NCBI GenBank assembly: GCA_001642005.1
Contig: LWCA01000028.1
Coordinates: forward strand, 9,511 to 73,510
Source: Intoshia linei
Taxonomy: Eukaryota; Animalia; Orthonectida
DNA: 64,000 nt
Reading direction: 5' to 3'
The translations under genes were made by a program, and so were the position numbers. Positions 2,152 through 59,140 of the stretch are shown piece by piece (positions within the stretch are counted from its first letter, which is position 1; the number at the start of each line of letters is the position of its first letter). Under the pieces are notes generated by a model. That model had not been told where the DNA came from. It made no database searches and saw only the letters and a list, made by a program, of their open reading frames with translations.

Positions 2152-3852
2152 GTATATACATTCAATACACATTTTTTTTGAAATTGTAGGATGACAGTAC
2201 GGAAAGACATAATTCTATTTTATATTCAAGGTGTCTTAACCCATTTAACTAACTACCAAAACGTAAATTATTATATGAAATTCAGATTTATTCAGATTCT
2301 GAATAGATTCTTAGTAAAAATTTCTTACAGTCGTTAATATTTTGTTGGTATTTGTAAATAAGTAATTAACTTATTATTTTTGTTGATTATAATCAACAAC
2401 CATAAAGATCTACTAACGTTGAAATTAATCCATAAGCTTAATATCATATTACCAACATTATCGTTTAGATGAATAACTAGCAGCGAATAATACAAAATTA
2501 ATAATATTATTATTATTTAAGACTTAAATTGAGTTTAATTTAAACTTTAAATGAAAAAGTATGTATAAATTATAGAAATATTATAGAAAATAAACTATAA
2601 TATATATGTTTAAATTAATATTAAGTTAAAAATTTTAAATTTAAGTTTAAACGTCGTGCGTAACTCAACCCCAAAATTTTAGCAGATTTTAATGCTGACA
2701 TGATGTTTGTAATTATAATACTAGACTGTTGTAATAGTGAAGTTACAAGCATAAGTTAGAGCAGTTTTAGCAGTTCAATTTGTTGTAATAGTGAACAGTT
2801 CCAACTGAACTGTAACTTCACTTTAATATTAATAAACTTGTTTTAGCACATTTATTTCGATTTTGATAATGTTAGATTCGAACTTCAGATCTAATAGCCT
2901 TATTCTTCATTGATACCATTACATAGACTAATTTTTACTAAGGCTAAGAGAGATTTCGTTATGTGAATGTAGTAATTTCGTCTAAATGGAAACAATACAA
3001 ATATAGATAGATCATTTTCTGTAATATAACAGAAAATAATATTAAGTTTGTAATTTAACGATAAGATTTGTTGCTTTGATTCAAACTTTATTCTGTGTTC
3101 TAGAATAAATGTGATGAAAAATAAATAAAGTATATAGTTTATATGGATATATGAAATATACTACAGTGAAACACCCTAATGATTATTTACTTTTTCAATG
3201 CAACATTTGAAAAATATTGGTTGATAATATGTATAAAATTATTTTTCACCGTGACTGCGTAGATTTTTAGGTTAAAATTTGGTAATTATATCAATTGGAA
3301 TAAGCTGTATCAGAATATTTATTTTTTTTTTAATTGTACAACCGTTAATTATTTCAAATTTTTTGTTTTAAAAATATATTTTGTTAATAAAATAATATAA
3401 TAAAAAATTGAATACTAAAGTGCTTTTTTGACCATGAAGACGTCACTTATATAATACTAGATATAACTATCATTCGTAATTTTTTAAAAATTTTAAGGTT
3501 GTTTTCACTTAAAAAAAGGTAATCTGGGTTTTTTACCATGAAAATTACCTTTGAGATTATCATTTATGATAAGACATTAAATAAGACTTTCTTAATTTTT
3601 ACAAAAAAGGGTAATTTGTGGTTTTGGCCGTGAAGATATAAGATTTTCAAATTAAAAATTATCACAATATTGATGAACTTAAAACTTTTTACTATAATTA
3701 GTGCGACCATATTTTTAACGTACTAATATTGCTTAGAAACGAAAATGTAAAAAATATATAAAAAAAATTGTGTAACTAGACAATAACTAAATTGAGACAT
3801 AGTTTGATAACCATGAGTAATTGCTGAAAATGAAATATATATTTATTAAAAT

Positions 3853-4080
3853 TAAATTCCATTTAAAGTCCAAAAATTATTAGTAACACTAAATACTCTT
3901 TCTACATATGTATTTGAGCAATTTAGAGAATAATAAATCTGGATAAATTTTTTGAATCCATTAGTATCGATATTATCACACAAATCCTTCCAAGGAGGAA
4001 TAGTAAGAGAATTTTTTATACATAAATCAATTGCAACAAATTCATTGAAGATTTCATCTCGATTTATCTGGTTAAATAAA
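3853..4080 (-). mobile_element. hAT-family transposase C-terminal remnant (different subfamily)
   Basis: The minus strand reads ...FIQIYYSLNCSNTYVERVFSVTNNFWT, matching the hAT dimerisation motif SxAxxERxFS. Confidence 0.65.
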
Positions 4081-4712
4081 TTTATTTTGTCATAAATTGT
4101 GATACATTTTTGTATGTTGATCCAATTAACTTGAGTTTTATTAATAACAAAGTAGAATGGTGATAAATATTGAATTTGAATGTTGTTACAATATATACTA
4201 TAGATACGTAAAAATAAGTAAAAGTTATAAATAAGAAAATTTGTAATATAAAATTTAAATTCATAACTTTATTTAGTACGTTAAAAGTATGTTATTAGCA
4301 CTGTGCCAATAATGTATTTTTTTTAAAATAACGTACTTATGGTCACTACTATAATATGTAAATATCATAATTCTAAAACAGGTTTGAATTTAAAAATAAT
4401 CGGGAATTTAGTTTTTAACCTTGAAGGACTCAATCTCTGAAATTGAAATTTGCGATAAAACATCACCCTGGAAAAACTGTTATAAGAATATGAAATTTGT
4501 AAAACTTGTCTCCCATTACTTTCATAAATAAACAAACACATTTTTAACCATTTTACTTTATATATGTAAGGATGTAATTTAAATATAACTTTCCTTTTAC
4601 CGTTAACACTAGTTTATTGTATGTCACCACTGTTACTAAAATGTTATTAAATATTATTTATTGATTACACAGCAACGCTGATAATTTAAACATAATAATT
4701 TATCATTTATAA

Positions 4713-38269: not shown

Positions 38270-39528
38270 AACTGTCAACTTCTTGACGCGTTCTGGTTAA
38301 ATTGTACTAGACACCTGTTTTATCGCATTCCACAGTGAATTCGTGATTCAATAGAATTATATTGGGTTCTAGCAGCATATAGCCCTTGCACTGGTAGAGT
38401 TATATGTATAGTTAATAGGTTATAAAAATATTACATCTTTATCATGCTCCAATAATTTTCTATTGGATTTAAAACTGGACTGTTAGGAGGCCAAATTATT
38501 AATTTTTCTCCATTAATAGCATTTTCTGATAAAAATGTCCTACTATATGGTCATACATGTGGAAGGTGAATCGTGCATGAATTTGAAATTGTTTTTAAAT
38601 TCTTCACTCTTTGAATTGAACCATGGAAAGTAGTTCTTCTCCAAAAACTCTGTGTAACTAACTATAAAAATTTAAACATGCCAAAATAGTGAGTATTACA
38701 ATTTAGAATTTAATTTTACGCCACTTGGAATTCGAAATGGTCCTAACACTTGACTATCAAGTATTACAGCCCAAAACATGACCCCTCCTCCATCTTTTTG
38801 GCAACGCAATCTAATCGGAACTTTAGCATCATTAAGTACCCAGCCTCTTGACCACCCACCCGGTCCATCTAAAGTTGCACGGCATTCATCAGTGAACATA
38901 ACCATATAGAAATTTATCTTTAAATTGACTTTAACCCAATTAAGACGTTTTACTTTATGAATTGGCTTTAAAATTGGTCTTTTCGTAGATTTTTTGACAT
39001 AAGAAATGGTTTTTAATACCCTACAACGAGTATTTCTCGAGAAATTGTTATGTTACAAGTTGTAAATAATTTGGAACTAGTGGCAAGTGGTGTGGTAGAT
39101 ATTTCTCGCCTTAATCGAGATAATTCTCGCAGTGTCATTACTTTTTTTTGCATATTTGGACCTATCATTTTAATTATTTAATTTTTTGATGGGTAATGAG
39201 CCCATTTTTTAATTTTCGATGGTCGCGTTTTAGAACTTTGGATATAAAGAGTTGTCTTTCCTCTGGCCAATAAGTCTGTTATTTGACTTTTTTCGTCATT
39301 CTTTTGTCTCATTTCAAATTTGCCTAACAAATTGACACACTAATTTAAGTATATAAACAATAATATGTGAATGAAAAGTTTTTTTTACAAATTAAATTTA
39401 GTTTATTTAATGAATAATATTAACATCAATTAAAAGCCACCTAATTACGAAACAAAAAATTAAGTTTTCATTATTCCTAAAGTTTATTAGATGAATTTTA
39501 GTGATCTGCCTAATAAATTAACACACTG
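38270..39528 (-). mobile_element. Decayed Tc1-like transposon (TRT/DD37E-like)
   Basis: VMFTDECRATLDGPGGWSRGW...GGGVMFWA and WPPNSPVLNPIENYW. One terminus (cagtgtgttaatttattaggca, flanked by TA) is at 39528, with an inner direct repeat near 39321. The left boundary is approximate. Confidence 0.85.
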
Positions 39529-49700: not shown

Positions 49701-52700
49701 TCATACACCCATATATTTTATATAAATAAATTTACTTTGTTCCGAATCATAAATTATAACAGCGTTTCTCACCTTTTTTACTCTTGTGGACCATGGAAAT
49801 TTGTAGTTAGATTAAATTTTAACATAAGTTTCAATGGTGAACATTTCTTATTTATTCGAAAGAAATGTGTTATTTTTAATATAATATAAATAATATTCTA
49901 CTGATTCTTCGTAGTTGAGAAACGCTGCTCTATTTTTTGACATTTTTTGGAAAATATCAACCCAGTTATGGTTGAATAACAAGGTTTAAAAAAATATAGT
50001 ATTCTACATTATTTATCTCGCATAAGTATATCAAATTCCAAAGTGGGAGTGTATTAGTAAAGTATAGATAAAATACTGCATTTCCATATGTAAAACTCTT
50101 AAAGTGTTTGTATTGTGCCGCAAACCAAAAAGTTTGAGAATCACTAGTTTGATTAAAAAAATACTCTGATAATCCAATAAAATTCTTGATGTATCTATAG
50201 CGTATTTTATGTAGTCGTTCAATTTAGCTCTAGCAGCTTTGGTTAAACGCGGTAATATAAAGTATGAAGAAATTGCATCTCTAATTGAAAATTCGGATCG
50301 CTCGTTTACTAAAAATTGTTAAATTAATATTAATAACTTGAAAACGTTTTTCAGGGTTTGCAGGTTTTGATTGTAGATGAAAAATAATTTTTGAACGCGG
50401 GTAAGCTATAAATTGATCCAATGCAACCTCCAGTTTAATTTCAGGTTTTTGTACAAAAAAAGGTAATTTTAATAATTCATCCATTGATATTCTAACCAAA
50501 TTATGACCATAAACTTAAAATAATACCTATCAGGAAGTTCTTCTATACATCTGAAAACTAATGCTTTTATTTCTAAATCCCTGATCATATAAATTTCTTT
50601 CGGTTTTATTCCCTAAATAATAAATAATTGTTTTGTAAATAAACATCATTGTATATATACAATGGGGCCAGGTGATCCGCACTTTTTTTAATATCAAAAT
50701 GGCATATACATTATCATATACTATATACCAGTGATTCTTAACCTGGGAAATAGCGCCCCCCTTGGAGCGATATGGGTGGCAAAAATATTTTTATCGCATC
50801 AGTTGGGATTCCAATATAACATCAGATTATAACCGTTCAATGAGCCTAGCTGGCACAGTCGTTATAGTCACATGATTATTTTGTAGAAAGGGTTTGTATT
50901 CATTTTTGGAATGTTACTATTATCTATTGGAATCTTAATGTTACTATTGGCCTTTCCATCTACTTACCTTGTTGAGAAAAGTTTTAGCGTAGTAACTGAT
51001 CTTCAATCAAAAAAGCGGAACAAACTACATTTATCAAAACAGTGACTTAAAATTATGCTTAACAAATATAGCTCCTGATATTGAAAAATTATCAAATAAT
51101 CATCAATATCAGGGTAGCCATTAATAATAAATTTTATCTTTTCTTTGTAAAGCTTAAACATTTATAATGTCATGATTCCATTTAATATTTCTAATTTCAA
51201 ATTTGTTAAATTTATTCATTATAATATATTTTTCTTTTTTTTACATACTCAGTTTTTATGGTATTTTTTGTATACATTATTTTCATGATCCATCAAATTA
51301 AAAAAATAATTTCCAATTTCATTTGCATATTTCTTGAGATACCAAAAAAACAATCATTAATTGCTTTTTTTATTGTATTCTGTATCAAATCTACTGTTAA
51401 AAAAATTTCTGTATAACATGCATTGCACATTCATAACCTTTGTAAATTAAAAAATATCGATTGTCTTTATGAGGCGATAATTTTATTTTTGTTGAAAAAT
51501 GGCCGAATACGATTGCGATTTAATGATTACGATAAAATGATGGCTGAGATGCGGCAATGGCCGCCAAGAAATTTGAGATTGAACCGTCATACATTCTTAA
51601 CTGTAAACAAAAGAGAAACAAAAAATTTCATTGAATATTTGACCTAAGTAAAAAACCTGTATGACAAAATAGCGCAACAAATTTGTAGAAATTTTGAATT
51701 TTTAAAAAAACAAGTTGTTAATTAAATTCATCATTACGGATATTAAATAAATGTACTCGTCCTAAAAGCTATGACATGTTTGCCTAACCCGAATTATAAT
51801 GAGGACACTTTCAATTTAGATATAATAATGATCAAGGATGATACCAGCATTGCTGTTTTATTACCAGCAAAATTAATCAATTTTTTGAATACGATTAAAT
51901 TTTGATGTATAATCACAATTTGAATTAATTTAGAATAAAATCTCTTATTATCATTTCATATTATCGTTCAACAGCATGAATTCATTAAAACACTTTAAAA
52001 AAGACGGAGTTAATTACATGCAATGTTTAGTATGCTCAAAAAGAATCAAATACATAAATTCTCATTCACACATGGCGTCATTGAGGAACCATTTAAAAAT
52101 ACATGGTGACTTGGACAATGTTTCTGTCACGCCAAAAATAACGAGTATTTTAGCAATTAAGAAAGATGAAAAATTTCCAAATTTGCCACATATTCCATAT
52201 CATTTTGTTAAGAATATACAAGATAATTATTCTTCACTATATAGTAATTACTCTGGAATGATTGATATTCAATATGTTGATACTATAAGTGGAAAGTGGA
52301 GAGATGACTACAATAAGTTGTATCAATTGGTTAATGGTCATAAAACCCTTAGAACTTATCATTGCAATCCGAAAATTAACTTTAGAAAACCATGTAGCAT
52401 CTCAAATGCTAGATGGAACTCTAGAAGTATATACTGCCTCAAAGCTTTTATATTAAACGTGGATAGAACGCCAAATATGATCGAAGCGTGTAATTTCATA
52501 TCTTACGTGTGGAGCAATTGCTGGTTTACGTGTCGTTTCCAAAAAGACACCTACAAACCTTTGGTAATTATTTAAACACAATAGTTTTTCGCCAAACTGA
52601 ACGTCTCCGTAATCAATGTTATCTTAAATATGGTCAAACTAAGATAAGCCCTCGGTATATTCTACTCATACATAGTTATAAATATTTATATACAAATCGT

Positions 52701-55700
52701 ATAGTAAAATTCAGTATCCTTTTGAGCACCCTCGTAGAGTTTTCAAATAAAATATCATAAATTTATCTTTATCATTATGGACGAAACTGATTTAAATAGA
52801 TATAAGTACATTAATACTATGATCAGAACATTAGAAACACCTCAGACTGTAATATGATTGTAAAAATATTACAAGTAATATGAACGGACAAATGGTCATT
52901 CATACTCTTCATGATACACATAAAAATAATTAAACAAAACAATACAAAGAAACTTTTTAAAAGATAATTTTAAAAAATATTTGATTTTGTACTACAACAA
53001 ATAATACACATTTTATACATCTTTATTAATACTTAAATTAGAGATCGGAAACCTTTTGCATCTAGTAAACCACTTTTCTATTTTTTACAGGTGTATTAGA
53101 AATAGTAGATATGACTAACGGGTACTAAATTTAAAAAAGGTTATGAAACCCTGAATTAGATATTTACGGACATAAGACAACGCTGCTTGTTCTACAACAA
53201 CTATCTAATAATGGCAATAAAATTATGTTTTAAAATTTATAAAACGGTGCTACAACCGACAAGGCCACAGAAATATTATTATTATGGCGAATAAGAGATT
53301 TCACTATTTCAGACAGAGACAGTATTTCATCACTGTTTAGAAAAAAATTTAACAAAAAAAACAACACTACGTGAATTTTTTTGTTTTTATGGGTTAAAAA
53401 AAAATCGCCCTAATTATAACCTATCAAGATCTGATTAACCAATACGTAGACCAACATTTGACAACTACATTGGTTATCAAATCAGCTATTCCCGGACTCA
53501 CAAAATCAATTCAACGTTAATACTTAAAGTTAAAATAAGAGATTTTGCCAATCTAAGGTATCTAGAAATTTTCAACACAAAATTAAAAAAAATTAAATTG
53601 GTATATTCTTCATACTCAAAATCACTTTCCTTACTCTTGACAAATAAGATGAAAGCAATGATTGAATTTTTCCAACGTTTCAATTATACCAATCTCTACA
53701 AATATCACTCCATTTGATATTATTATAGAATGTTGACAGAATTTAGAGCCTACGCGTCATCCAAACAGCTGAAGATGGTGGCCGCTTGTGTAGACTTCTT
53801 GTTTATGGCGTCGCGAGATAAAACTTACACAGCTTTGAGACTGGCCGCAATAGCAACAAGGTATTATGAACATGCATCCTTATCATTGATGAAGGAGTTC
53901 ATGATTGAGGGACGCATGGATTCATGTTTATGGTTTCATTCAGTGGCATCCACAAATGTATCAGACGAGTTGTGGAAGATAATGGAAGATCCAGGGCTTA
54001 GTGAAAGAGACTCTCTTATACCATATTCAAAATCTATGATTATAGTAGCAAGAAGTCCATACTCATCGTCGGCGAATTCTTATTCTTATGTTAGCATGGC
54101 AACGTCCATGATTTCTATAGGACAAAGATGTTTATAAAAATTTGTTAAACGACATTGAAATTTGTAAAAACATTAATTCTAGTAATAAATATATATTTCA
54201 TTTTCAGCAATTACTCGTGTTTATCACAAACTTTATGTCTCAATTTAGTTATTGTTTAGTTACGCAATTTTTTTATGTATTTTTTAAATTTTCGTCTCTA
54301 AGCAATATTAGTACGTTAAAAATAGTGTCGCACAGTGCGACTCGCACTAGTTAAAATCACATCTTAGATTTAGAAAAATTTATGGTTCCTTATTTGAAAA
54401 GACAGGCATAGAATTCAATTAAAGACCCTCGCAATATATCTACCGCTATCGGATAATATACGAACTTACTTTCGCCTTTTAATTACCGATTCAAAACTGA
54501 TGTAATGAAGCATTTAAAATGGTATGGTACAGGCTTAACATTTGTGGAAGTATATAAACAAAATCTGTAACTACAATAAATACAGCAAGAATTAACCTGC
54601 AAAGATTACAGTCGTTATGATAGAAGAATATCATTATGGATGAGGAAAAATATAGAGCAGCCATGTTATTTAAAATGGGTAAACGCACGCTGTAAGGATT
54701 CACTACAAAAAAGAAACATATATAACAGCAATGATATAGGCGAGATCCCATGAAGCCGTAAAACTAATAGAAAATTTACAAACCTCAAAACAAGGGAAAC
54801 AATGTCTTGGTGCGATAACAACTATATTTCTAAAAAAAATAGCCCTGTATGAAACCACCAATTTTCTCACTGCAAAAAGATGGTCATTTCCAGAGATGGT
54901 GCAGTGGAAAATACGAAAACCTTAACGATATCAAATCCGGCTTAAATACATATATCGATGTCACCAATATCGAAGGCGAACAGGTAAATTTAGTGAAATG
55001 TATTATTGATACTAATGGAAACGAAAATATCATTAAAACAAACATAATTGTATTAAAGCTATTCACTCTCCCCAAAAATGTATAAAGGCGATTTGATCTT
55101 ACGTACTTACACTGCGTTCCAAGTTATTAGGTAAGTCACGTTTTGCCGAACACTATGGTTTACTGTTTATATTGATAATTTTTTTTGCTAAGTAATTAAA
55201 CTTATAATATTTTTTACGAGATTTAAGTTTTTTAAATTTTGTGTATCGTCAAAGAAAAAGTAATTAATTAACTTTTTTAATTAATTGATGTTCCAAATTA
55301 TTAGGTAAATAAATAATGGGGCAAAAAAAAAAAGACCTTACAAAGGACGAAAAAACCAAAATTACCAAACTTTTGAGCAAAGGTAATAGTCTTCACGAAA
55401 TTTTGCGTCAAAAATCGATAGGAATGTAAGGACGATAAAGAAATACACTTTGAACTCTGAACGAAAAAGGGCGCGAAAACCTAAAGGCGGTATCAAAGGA
55501 CTGACTACACGAGGATACCAAAGATTGTTGTTGAACTTGCAAAGAAACCATTATCATCATCAAAAAAACTTTTTCGTCAGCTGGTTTGTCTACAATCCCT
55601 CGAACATCAAGATGTCATGCACTAAATAGAATCGCAAAATCCGTTAAAGCCAAAACAAAACCACTTCTTAGCTAAACAACATAAACATAGAAGAGTCAAA

Positions 55701-58700
55701 TGGGCTCATAATTATATGAAGACCGATTTTTCGAAAGTTATATTCACGGATAAGTGCTGATCGACTTTAGATGGACCGGATGGGTGGACGAGAGGTTGGG
55801 TTTGTAAGGAGTGGGGACCGGTATACCGCCTTCGGAGACAACAAGGTGGTGGAGGTATCATGTTTTGAATGGCAATTGTAAGTGATAAGATTGTTGGACC
55901 ATTTAGACACACTGCAGGGCTAGAGTCGATAGGTTCACGCATATCCAGTTTTTAAAGGACAATTTCTTTCCATGGTATTCTCGACAGACACAAAAGTTCA
56001 AAAGGGGTCTAGTTTTTATGCAAGACAATGCACCATGTCACTCAGCTAATGATACCAAATCTTTTCTAGCATCAAAGCATTTCAAAAACTAAAAATTAAT
56101 GGTTTGGCCGGCTTTGTCACCTGATCTCAACTGCATTGAAAATATGTGCAAAGTGCAAAGTCCATTACCCCAGTACAAATAAAAATGTTGACCGGGTCGA
56201 TGGAAAATAGACTTCTGAAGATCGTAGAAAACGAAGGTGACTACATCAACTACTAATTAATATATTTCTTTTTTTATAGTGTTGTTTGTTTAATTAGTTT
56301 AATTTAATTTAATTATTTAACATTAAATGTTATTTTGGATACATATTTATGTTTTGTAAGAGCAATTAATAAGTTAAAGTGATTAATTGTATAACTTACC
56401 TAATAATTTGGAACGGTCAAAAACCAATATATTTTAAAAACTCGTCAAATAATTTTACTATTTTTCTGAAATTTCGAAGATGTTCTTTCACAAGGTCTAC
56501 GAGTTAACGTAAAAAAATTGTTAAATTTTAACAGCTTAAAATCAGTGAAATGCCACATTTCAACACTTACATAATAATTTGGAACGTAGTGTACACAAAC
56601 ACCATAATTCCATATCAAGGTTGCATTAACCTAATTTTTCCAGATAAAAGCAGAACATTTAATTTTTATATAACCAATGGTCCCAATGTCCTAAGCTGCA
56701 AAACATCGTTGCAAATGAAATTTTGCAAACAAATTTCAAATGAAATGAATTAAAACAGTAGACCAGTCGACAATGAAACCTAAAGCAGTTTAGTATATCG
56801 ATGCAGTCGATTCAGCAACAATATCTCCCATCTATAAAAATATTTTCGTCAAATTTCGGTACGTACTATCTAATTACAAATGTACGAGCAATACCGGCAT
56901 TCACTCAATACCGTTAAGGAAGACACCGGTTATAAAGGACCCATATACACTTATTTATCAAATTTTTCTCGATAATTCTCGAGAAATTGCAAGCTCTAGT
57001 TGTAATGCTTTAACCCAGATGGAGTACGTCAATTAAATAAAATTAGACAAAGATTTCATTTGCACAGACCCCCTAAAGTTGTATTTAGAAAGTCAATTTT
57101 TAAAATAAAAATCTTTACTAATAATAACTCTTCTAAATAGATATAACAAGAGTTTATACCATTTGGAAGGGTTTGCTGATTTCGAATGAAAAAAAAAAAT
57201 GGAAAGTAAATTTTTCATCATAAATTGAAGGCTCTGAAAACCATTAATGCTTCCAATGGAGAAAATGTGTATAATTTCTCGAATGCTACCCTACAAGGTC
57301 CTCAAGGTTTAATATAAATACACCTAAATCTCGAGTTTTTATCAGGGTGGAATTTTCAGTAAATTATTTTGTATAATATTAAAAATTACCACAACGACTT
57401 TTCTGTAAACTTGAATGGCATTTTTACATTCAGTATAAGGATAACGATCGGTAGCCATTTCTACAACACACATACCAAAAGAATAAATATCGACCAATTC
57501 ATCATAATTTTCACTATATATTTCTGGAGCCATAAATTGAGGTGTACCGATAATGGACTTGACATGATCATTTTTTTTAATCCCGGCCAATCCTAAATCA
57601 CCAATTTTAACTGTTCCAGTAGACCCAGAAATGAAAATATTATCGCATTTTAAATCACGATGAATGATTGGTGGTTCTTGGTTATGTAAAAAGTTTAAAC
57701 CGAGAAGAATTTGCTTACTCCAACTCCTAATAAGCTTTCTAGATACAGGTGCTAAACTTTTAATATACGCCTTGAGGGTTCCTGAAGTGAGTAAATCAGT
57801 CACCAACACAAGATCTCCCCGTCTTCGTTCACTATTCCAAAAGTCATGATATTGAACAATATTATTGTGACTAATCCGTTTGAGCAAACGTGCCTCTTTG
57901 ATAAAAAGCATAACAACCTCTTTTGACCACGCTTTACTATGTAATTCACACCAAGCAAGATAGATTCCAGTTTCCGTGTCCAGACAAGGGTAAACAATTT
58001 TATACGAACCTCTTCCCACTGCAACTTTAAAACGCAGGAAACGGCCACAGGGAGACATTAATTTATCATCGTTTTTTTTATCGACGAAATCGTTTTCTTC
58101 AATATCCACTTCAAAATCGATAAATTCATCTGGGTTTTGAACTTCAATGATTATAGAATTATCTGAATCGTCCTCATCGTTTGTTTTGAAAATAATTTCG
58201 TTTAAAATAGCCATAGCTTTTGATTTACTGATATTTTTCCCACCAATATTAGCCTTGAGTCTAAACATTTCATTTTTAATTTTTTTCAATCTACTGTATT
58301 TGAAAACTTTTCGATCACAACTTCGTATCTTTAAAGAATTTCTCATAATATTCATTTGGTGCCAATTGCAGACTTGTGATGAATCATTTTTTAATTGACA
58401 ACCACACACAATTAATCTTTTTACAACAATTTCACGTCCATTACGGTCAATGCCTTTTTTTTCTAGCCATTCGGTAGTTATGTCATGCATTGAACTAGAC
58501 ATATTTTTGGATTTAAGACAATTGTATTTACTGAGTTCCAGAAGATTGAATTCTTCAAAATTAATGCTTCTTTCGGTTAAACTAATAATGTTTATGTTGT
58601 TACACGTTGGAGCGTAAAAGTAACTTTGATCTTGCATTCGTTCTTTCAATATTGGATCAGCGTATCGAACCGTGTCCACGAAATCGTTTGAAGGGTCACT

Positions 58701-59140
58701 GAAATATGCCTCATCGCCTTCTTTATGCTTAAAAAATCTCTTTTTTCGTTTTCGCCAGGCGTGCAGGCCTGTATCTTTGGTATTGACGCATTCATTAATA
58801 TCATAAATCATTGGAATGAAAAGTTTGCCATCTAAAGAAATATTTCTATACTCAAAATCGGAAAAGGATTTTGTAATTTTTAGAATTCCGTTAGTATCGG
58901 TTTTCTCAAAAAATACTTCAGCTTGTTTACCTAAAAACGACACTATAAAATGAATTTTTCAAAATACATACCATCAGTAGTCATCTTTCTGTTTTTTGCA
59001 GTATTGTTAAACACAAACATGCCCTTGCGAGTGTTGTAATAAATTTTCATTTCTGATTTTAAATTTCTCTTTTTCTTTGTCTTTTTAAGTGTTTTTTTGA
59101 CGTTAAAACGTCCCGTTTTAACTGGCTCCATATCTGACAT
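43714..59140 (-). CDS. WNK: WNK (With-No-Lysine) serine/threonine kinase, multi-exon
   Basis: GRGSYKIVY (Lys in subdomain I), [28 protein letters not shown] and [10 protein letters not shown]. The kinase resumes after a 6.8 kb intron (GIKP.. at 50612). Later exons, in phase where checked, include a C-terminal coiled coil ([22 protein letters not shown]) and a Q/N/Y/P-rich last exon ending at 43714. First exon 59140-58972. Confidence 0.88.
45164..45339. mobile_element. Foldback MITE with about 56-bp TIRs and 5-bp TSD
   Basis: ccaaggacagtttaaaccaagacgaaatacgaggcgttctagtaaaaaagattgtg is matched by its reverse complement at the right end. tacat flanks both sides. Confidence 0.8.
48220..48922. 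mobile_element. Probable hAT non-autonomous element in a WNK intron
   Basis: Ends tggtggccaaacacggcccgcg ... tttagctaccactg resemble hAT TIRs and subterminal motifs. Confidence 0.45.
50729..51125 (+). mobile_element. hAT/Buster remnant in the WNK intron
   Basis: Terminus cagtgattcttaacct. Coding relic [29 protein letters not shown]. Confidence 0.8.
51976..52575 (+). mobile_element. BED-zinc-finger transposase remnant (hAT-related)
   Basis: [11 protein letters not shown]...[11 protein letters not shown] (BED finger), followed by a [17 protein letters not shown] transposase core motif. Internally deleted. Confidence 0.7.
53230..53620 (+). mobile_element. Possible heavily decayed Ty3/Gypsy integrase fragment
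   Basis: [11 protein letters not shown] resembles the integrase IVSDRGxxFTS motif. DLINQYVD / [13 protein letters not shown] and VKIRDF resemble the post-catalytic and C-terminal integrase regions. Frameshifted. Confidence 0.4.
53730..54137 (+). other. Endogenous viral element: rhabdovirus-like nucleoprotein (N) fragment
   Basis: [11 protein letters not shown]...[16 protein letters not shown]...[13 protein letters not shown]...[23 protein letters not shown] aligns motif by motif with vesiculovirus/lyssavirus N (KIVAAVDMFF, RYGTIVSRFKDCAAL, VADEMVQMM, DSYMPY, SPYSS). Intronless and richer in GC than its flanks. Confidence 0.85.
54327..54351 (+). mobile_element. Helitron-like 3' terminus (GC hairpin plus CTAG|T)
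   Basis: gtcgcac-a-gtgcgac palindrome followed 5 nt later by ctag and t. Confidence 0.55.
54361..54720 (+). other. Endogenous viral element: nodavirus-like RdRp (protein A) fragment, pseudogenised
   Basis: One frame with four stops reads [49 protein letters not shown]...[29 protein letters not shown]. This matches Nodaviridae motif F (PRNIST..LS.FTY.FK..V....WY) and motif A (DYSxxDG..S.WM..NI). Confidence 0.85.
54790..55109 (+). mobile_element. Ty3/Gypsy (Mag-like) gag zinc knuckles and protease N-half, decayed
   Basis: SWC...SHCKKxGHFQRWC double CCHC knuckle relic, then [14 protein letters not shown] (retropepsin DTG-like). Interrupted at a TA by the Tc1 element. Confidence 0.65.
55110..56591 (+). 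mobile_element. Near full-length, inactivated Tc1-like transposon with both TIRs, DD37E (TRT-like), IR/DR ends
   Basis: TA|cactgcgttccaagttattaggtaagt ... acttacataataatttggaacgtagtg|TA, with inner repeats at about 55290 and 56400. Transposase VIFTD..LDGPDGW...QDNAPCH...SPDLNCIEN has 37 residues between D and E, plus stops and frameshifts. Confidence 0.92.
56592..56950 (+). mobile_element. Continuation of the Gypsy protease and start of RT after the Tc1 insertion
   Basis: [14 protein letters not shown]...[11 protein letters not shown] (protease C-half), later [17 protein letters not shown] (RT N-terminal-like). Confidence 0.55.

Follow-up and report, generated by a model that had tools for sequence, protein, structure and literature searches.

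The DNA analysed here (the window) is a 64,000-nt stretch of contig LWCA01000028.1 in the genome assembly of Intoshia linei (GCA_001642005.1). Orthonectids, which parasitise marine invertebrates, are reduced animals usually placed with the annelids (PMC12249979, in the part of the text available). Two virus-derived fragments, one of a noda-like protein A (hereafter the fossil) and the other of a rhabdovirus-type nucleoprotein (the N fragment), lie with transposon remains in a single intron of a host protein kinase gene (Table 1), and the rest of the window holds ordinary animal genes. The intron was delimited with high-depth contigs from three sequencing runs (X2, X3 and X5), which leave the window at 57385 and resume with the letters of 50578-50607; this jump therefore marks a minus-strand GT-AG intron of 6,777 nt, across which the reading frame is kept. 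From its motif, we take the kinase to be of the WNK type.

Table 1. Features of the kinase intron and its surroundings, in positions of the window.
Feature	Position	Strand	Basis
Intron (GT..AG, 6,777 nt) of the host protein kinase gene; contains the whole cluster	50613..57389	-	Spliced contigs, splice sites, frame
Exon 1 of A3Q56_00514, with a CxxC...HxxxH stretch; multi-copy by contig depth	51976..52316	+	Gene model, contig depth
High-copy repeat preceding the N fragment	52404..53340		Contig depth
Rhabdovirus-type nucleoprotein fragment, 139 open codons; exon 2 of A3Q56_00514	53718..54137	+	Pfam PF00945, PDB nucleoproteins
Interspersed repeat of the host, separating the N fragment from the fossil	54183..54333	+	Second copy at window 3848-3701 (91% identity over 152 nt)
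Decayed remnant of a noda-like protein A, covering the RdRp fingers and the beginning of the palm (motifs F and A)	54361..54726; core 54373-54711	+	Translation, profile, phmmer, alignment of relatives
Stretch directly following the fossil, on shared contigs; contains ORF 54843-55085	54727..55107	+	Contigs 54306-55137 and 54350-55137
Decayed Tc1/mariner element with a broken DDE transposase	55108..56593	+	Terminal inverted repeats; PF13358 DDE_3, E 4.2e-8
Host kinase exon, upstream of the intron	57390..58958	-	PF00069, E 1.8e-43

Much of the kinase intron is multi-copy by contig depth. Over the high-copy repeat that precedes the N fragment, the summed contig depth in X1 is 93-211, compared with 11.7 in the single-copy flank (8-18 times), and Pfam found nothing in six frames of 52872-53341 or in three frames of 52404-52702. 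The repeat that separates the two viral pieces may belong to a hAT-like DNA transposon, as its 3' end. The same repeat forms the 3' end of a short element far upstream (3701-4310, minus strand), which has matching ends and an ORF; this ORF terminates in what is presumably a hAT-dimerisation-like motif, and a Pfam search with it gave no match. At the end of the repeat, just 5' of the fossil, there is a perfect 7-bp palindrome (GTCGCAC-A-GTGCGAC, 54330-54345), which may represent two transposon ends lying head to head or an excision footprint. Downstream of the fossil, the inverted repeats of the Tc1/mariner element run from 55110 and to 56591, with TA on both sides and inner copies of the repeats. 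A second decayed Tc1-like transposase is located at 38700-39200 on the minus strand (82% identical over 65 nt to the copy beside the fossil). Long direct repeats were not found within 50000-58000, and nothing adjoining the fossil was identified as an LTR or as what is left of a reverse transcriptase. The plus strand, antisense to the kinase gene, carries the fossil and the N fragment as well as the Tc1 transposase, the repeat end and a BED-like ORF.

The N fragment was recognized by the Rhabdo_ncap family (PF00945) on 53718-54134 (E 3.6e-10; 39.8 bits with a cut-off of 26), as a partial domain that corresponds to profile positions 179-291 of 410, and solved rhabdovirus-type nucleoproteins in the PDB match it with an E-value of 4.5e-5. 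An extension of the N fragment upstream of 53718 was rejected because the Pfam match stops there. The original prediction had placed a negative-strand endogenous viral element (EVE) about 220 bp from the noda-like sequence, and this agrees with the N fragment, the stop codon of which ends at 54137, 223-235 nt upstream of the fossil. Its sole relative in the databases is a gene model from this very genome, I. linei A3Q56_00514, and none of 11 candidates in viral contigs was confirmed as a relative. This gene model (249 aa) spans 51976-54137 on the plus strand, inside the kinase intron and on the strand opposite to the kinase gene, and splices exon 1, the CxxC...HxxxH stretch of which we take to be BED-finger-like, onto the N fragment. 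Exon 1 gave no match in Pfam, and no contig joining exon 1 to exon 2 was present among the contigs listed. A3Q56_00514 is probably a prediction artefact, i.e., a false fusion of debris; a real fusion of a BED-like sequence with N would be notable, if true. Contig cover of 53808-54041 is absent in all four runs that were compared, and this hole is uninformative. In the adjacent stretch (53574-53807), contigs are deeper in X2 and X5 (bin means of 41 and 23) than in X1 (0.28), with other letters before 53579; these contigs may match an A-rich stretch by chance or stem from a further copy of the sequence on the 5' side of N.

For the fossil itself, the original prediction had described a nodavirus-like RdRp in frame +1 of 54361-54720, broken by stop codons and overlooked in the list of open reading frames. 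Translation reproduced both the quoted peptides and the stops: the fossil is about 110-115 codons long and is interrupted by exactly four in-frame stops (at 54409, 54454, 54568 and 54577), and the frame is bounded by further stops at 54352 and 54751. It is missing from the ORF list because no open stretch in it reaches 60 codons. The frame is poor in stops (4 in 114 codons): shuffles of the same DNA average 9.5, only 2.6% of 2000 shuffles show four or fewer, and the remaining two forward frames have 10 and 7 stops. The frame was also said to be free of frameshifts, and the alignment with 61 relatives confirms this: within residues 1-110 of the fossil (54373-54702), it has neither an inserted nor a deleted column. 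An upstream extension to 54130-54208, suggested by some tblastn alignments, was rejected, since the host repeat is found there and the profile match starts at 54373.

With stops given as X, an unfiltered phmmer search against 1,835,955,588 proteins returned 228 matches with E<=0.001, 56 of them with E<=1e-10 (best 1.8e-16), so that the similarity expected of a stop-masked comparison was recovered. Among the 40 best of these 228 matches, 36 carry the Noda_Vmethyltr family (PF19222) and the other four match RdRP_1; named relatives include Beihai noda-like virus 18 (40%) and Mosinovirus protein A. The assignment to motifs F and A proved correct as well: residues 530-634 of the Beihai noda-like virus 18 protein (YP_009329958.1) align to the fossil without gaps (40% over 105 aa; E 9e-18 against the window), and the fossil covers the motifs starting at 535 (F) and 596 (A) in order and spacing, those starting at 657 (B) and 697 (C) lying beyond it (F, A, B and C being what we take to be the labels of the protein A motifs). 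The whole Beihai protein matches PDB entry 8fm9, a structure of nodavirus protein A (PMC9945985, in its accessible part), with an E-value of 3.1e-61.

Further relatives of the fossil were confirmed for 233 of 254 pattern matches in viral contigs and for 49 of 115 in metagenome contigs. A profile of 80 related ORFs gave the fossil 78 bits (54373-54750), compared with at most 4.9 bits in ten reversed or shuffled windows; this profile is partly circular, as its ORFs were found with the fossil as the query, and the phmmer search is the independent test. Queried directly, the fossil matched no RdRp family in Pfam, gave 13 candidates in a word-indexed protein search (none significant), had 8fm9 as its sole and weak match in a PDB sequence search (E 0.99), and showed no blastn match to 129 noda-like loci. 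When 53400-55110 was compared with the same 129 loci by tblastx, all 59 matches fell within 54361-54711 and none on the N fragment. In one noda-like contig (L017), the methyltransferase, the RdRp and an S-domain capsid (PF00729) are encoded in one frame of 1669 codons, unlike in the bipartite nodaviruses.

A maximum likelihood tree of 62 rows was built from the 45 best-scoring cores and the named ones, the other cores being omitted, out of a pool of 199 cores from 206 candidate proteins (alphanodavirus and Orsay-like sequences were absent from the tree, and the bootstrap had not settled). The fossil is attached by a long branch (1.82) and belongs to no starred set of the tree; it is positioned outside the starred clade that holds two nervous necrosis viruses, from which the long branch may wrongly shut it out, and its best identities are 40-44%. 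It is 36-41% identical over about 105 residues (F to A) to Beihai noda-like virus 18, Wenling noda-like virus 2 and Mosinovirus protein A, which are whole replicases of about 960-1035 aa with a methyltransferase domain whereas the fossil is a fragment, and none of the three is its supported sister. As judged from sequence comparison, the fossil belongs to a noda-like (Nodamuvirales-type) protein A, and the tree assigns neither a genus nor a formal family. The phylogeny that had been called for was thus obtained, with the fossil in no supported group, and the earlier attribution to the RdRp of Nodaviridae protein A stands for the noda-like protein A and not for the formal family or genus.

Compared with its relatives, the fossil is eroded. 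It retains 16 of 24 columns that are conserved in >=90% of the 61 relatives, which themselves retain 20-24. Its GC content is 0.32 and its GC3 0.28, like that of two host exons (0.28); all 129 viral noda-like loci have a higher GC content (0.37-0.59, median 0.51), and GC3 in the matched part of the Beihai protein gene is 0.57. The four stops and the loss of conserved columns show decay that is incompatible with a replicating virus. The fossil spans residues ~520-634 of a protein A of about 1035 residues, and the match fades near residue 634, ahead of motifs B and C of the relative. A profile search in six frames of the whole window revealed no second noda-like piece (motifs B and C, N-terminal methyltransferase), and tblastx against the 129 noda-like loci gave no frameshifted continuation into motifs B and C. 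Because it is truncated before these motifs, the fossil is dead and cannot encode a polymerase; the truncation bears on its function, not on its noda-like origin. Of a bipartite nodavirus genome, with its RNA2 capsid and B2, nothing but a fragment of RNA1 is left here. The low GC content and the lost conserved residues could partly derive from a divergent, AT-rich source virus instead of decay (the branch of 1.82 cannot separate the two). The lack of indels in 110 codons is slightly unexpected for an old neutral sequence, and the detected stretch may itself be bounded by such breaks.

Part of 53000-55300 is contained in five runs of two studies, and four runs were compared. None of the listed runs is recorded as RNA or small RNA, which speaks neither for nor against expression. 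In X1 (study P1, guessed to be DNA and possibly the assembly's own source), a single contig of 832 nt covers 54306-55137, and in X2 (study P2, run type unrecorded), a single contig of 788 nt covers 54350-55137, each with 1 other letter, so that most or all of the stops are common to both studies. At the 3' end, both contigs extend into the terminal repeat of the Tc1 element; at its 5' end, the X1 contig shares sequence with the host repeat. Run X3, which is labelled as a different organism (coded organism B), also covers the fossil and has a spliced kinase contig. Presence in genomic sequence, on which the original prediction depended, is therefore borne out by contigs from two studies, in which the fossil runs on into the Tc1 end (X1 being DNA by guess only). 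The fossil is a genuine EVE joined to host DNA, inside a spliced host intron. A contig bridging the N fragment and the fossil was not present among the contigs listed, and the link between the two thus comes from the assembly alone.

We regard it as very probable that the fossil represents an interior part of a noda-like polymerase gene, now broken, which was copied by reverse transcription from RNA1, inserted in the germ line, became fixed in the I. linei genome and decayed without function. A fragment of viral RNA1 would have been copied into DNA by the reverse transcriptase of a host retroelement, the cDNA would have been inserted in the germ line among host repeats in the kinase intron, and neutral decay would have followed the insertion. 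Nodaviruses are not known to encode a reverse transcriptase, and for this reason, together with the case of the endogenous nodavirus eBxnv-1, copying by a host element is suggested; retroelement reverse transcription is the route proposed for eBxnv-1 (PMC5177903, as far as the text is available). The rhabdovirus N fragment would stem from a separate and probably later event, because its frame is open and its GC content is 0.39, compared with 0.32 in the fossil, and the host repeat between the pieces argues for separate deposits rather than joint capture. Of the earlier claim that two unrelated viruses were captured at one locus, the unrelatedness holds (no tblastx match on N); the joint capture probably does not, given the host repeat, and the adjacency comes from the assembly alone. 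The two pieces probably lie together because the large intron tolerates insertions and gathers transposon and viral debris.

The carrier of the fossil could be sought in the 380 nt on its 3' side, if these were a gag-pol (protease) remnant of a retrotransposon that was joined to viral RNA by template switching. Such a chimera is a detail of the explanation just given, not an alternative to it, and is possible but doubtful. The ORF at 54843-55085, which is on the strand of the fossil and in its contig, draws clusters of retroviral/retrotransposon aspartyl proteases in a language-model search (the 10 best family-bearing matches all belong to one clan), and eBxnv-1 is located in a Bel/Pao element (PMC5177903, accessible text). 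However, the protease scores are 0.80-0.84, under the line of 0.9, and one in three shuffled proteins likewise yields a list confined to one clan; Pfam, a PDB sequence search and a fold search with a model of low quality (pLDDT 42) returned no protease. Of 36 candidates for the same ORF in viral contigs, none was confirmed.

Selection against sense-oriented inserts in introns produces an antisense bias, and this bias is the same as that expected if the intron were a small antisense trap resembling a piRNA cluster, in which transcription of the kinase gene would yield RNA antisense to the inserts and, putatively, silencing small RNAs. Such a trap is unlikely here. All five pieces are on the plus strand, opposite to the host gene, and comparable arrangements have been described: one-direction clusters of Aedes hold EVEs of several virus families among transposon fragments (10.1101/127498, in the part available), and antisense piRNA-like RNAs have been proposed for a rhabdovirus N EVE of a mollusc, the dog whelk (PMC6085071, likewise). 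Yet five pieces on the same strand are few and two of them are only tentatively identified, the locus measures a few kb, its identified neighbours are DNA transposons and not LTR elements, and the fossil is probably too decayed to match the RNA of a living virus (0 blastn matches to the 129 loci). A wider version, in which the swollen intron of a housekeeping kinase, in a genome among the most reduced of any animal, archives positive- and negative-strand RNA viruses together with transposons and feeds small-RNA silencing, as a putative intron-borne antiviral memory that includes a noda-like lineage without close known relatives, seems to us distinctly unlikely.

The virus may instead have infected the animal parasitised by Intoshia, its RNA or cDNA having entered the plasmodium from the tissue of that animal, in which case the fossil would be no record of an orthonectid virus; we consider this improbable. 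The plasmodium inhabits the tissues of its host and feeds there (PMC12249979, available part), and the tree is without host signal. On the other hand, the host-like GC3 of the fossil is consistent with a long stay in this AT-rich genome or with adaptation of the virus to such a host, and replication of the virus in cells of the parasite itself would be the simplest way to germ-line integration.

A misjoin of the assembly via the flanking repeats, with the fossil genomic but located elsewhere than the N fragment, is a rather remote prospect. Multi-copy repeats bound both pieces, no bridging contig is among those listed, and the depth of the fossil contig in X1 (22.5, about twice the 11.7 of the single-copy flank) fits a second, near-identical copy. 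Against this, the repeat that separates the pieces is only about 150 nt long, which should be within the reach of ordinary read pairs, the window is gap-free here, and contig depth is not copy number (another intronic contig in X1 has a depth of 6.4). Finally, a single chimeric virus with a noda-like polymerase and a rhabdovirus-like nucleoprotein, for which the same strand, the distance of about 230 nt and the N-then-polymerase order might speak, is largely refuted and hardly credible, because none of the 59 tblastx matches falls on the N fragment (N similarity is found in 0 of the 129 noda-like loci), a host repeat lies between the pieces, both are internal fragments, and their GC content and decay differ.

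The closest known parallel to the decayed germ-line insertion favoured here is eBxnv-1 of Bursaphelenchus xylophilus, called the first endogenous nodavirus in the paper that describes it (PMC5177903, in the part available to us), which like the fossil is a nodavirus RNA1 polymerase in an invertebrate genome without a close known virus. The available text gives eBxnv-1 an open frame of 570 aa with the catalytic residues kept, expressed and located in a Bel/Pao LTR element, whereas the fossil comprises about 115 codons with four stops and without motifs B and C, in a host intron among DNA-transposon remains of an annelid-related parasite. The EVE clusters of Aedes aegypti, as far as their descriptions are accessible (10.1101/127498, PMC9962485), combine EVEs of different virus families and transposon fragments in one orientation, as is the case here; they extend over tens of kb, are rich in LTR elements and have piRNAs shown, in contrast to the Intoshia intron with its 6.8 kb and two viral fragments, which is known from sequence alone.

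In the literature searched (mostly non-subscription), no other paper dedicated to endogenous nodavirus elements was found beyond PMC5177903, and viruses or EVEs of orthonectids appeared only in one sentence, in the accessible text of PMC6396948, that mentions a gene for a viral-family RdRP in the predicted proteome of I. linei. An RNA-virus polymerase had thus been noticed earlier in this species; the screen in that paper used predicted proteins with near-complete domains (as its available part states) and would have omitted an unannotated, stop-broken fossil, and its text supplements do not contain 'Intoshia'. The available text of a survey of ant EVEs (PMC6540820) has no mention of 'noda', the text and two supplements of an RdRp survey (PMC12548735) have no 'Intoshia', the main text of a virome paper on 31 phyla (10.1101/2023.11.03.565523) has neither 'nodavir' nor 'Intoshia', and the term 'Beihai noda-like virus 18' matched no paper. 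EVEs of non-retroviral origin are a familiar phenomenon, as are mixed clusters of them; those derived from nodaviruses have rarely been described, and the host group is new.

The fossil reveals no new mechanism, and it illustrates that EVE screens based on proteomes miss pieces of this kind. Together with the N fragment, it is direct evidence for the arrival of noda-like and rhabdo-like RNA in the germ line of an orthonectid, and two separate past RNA-virus infections of the I. linei germ line are likely recorded in this intron. The fossil can be used as a probe for living relatives in orthonectid transcriptomes, and it likely adds an annelid-related parasite to the hosts of noda-like viruses.
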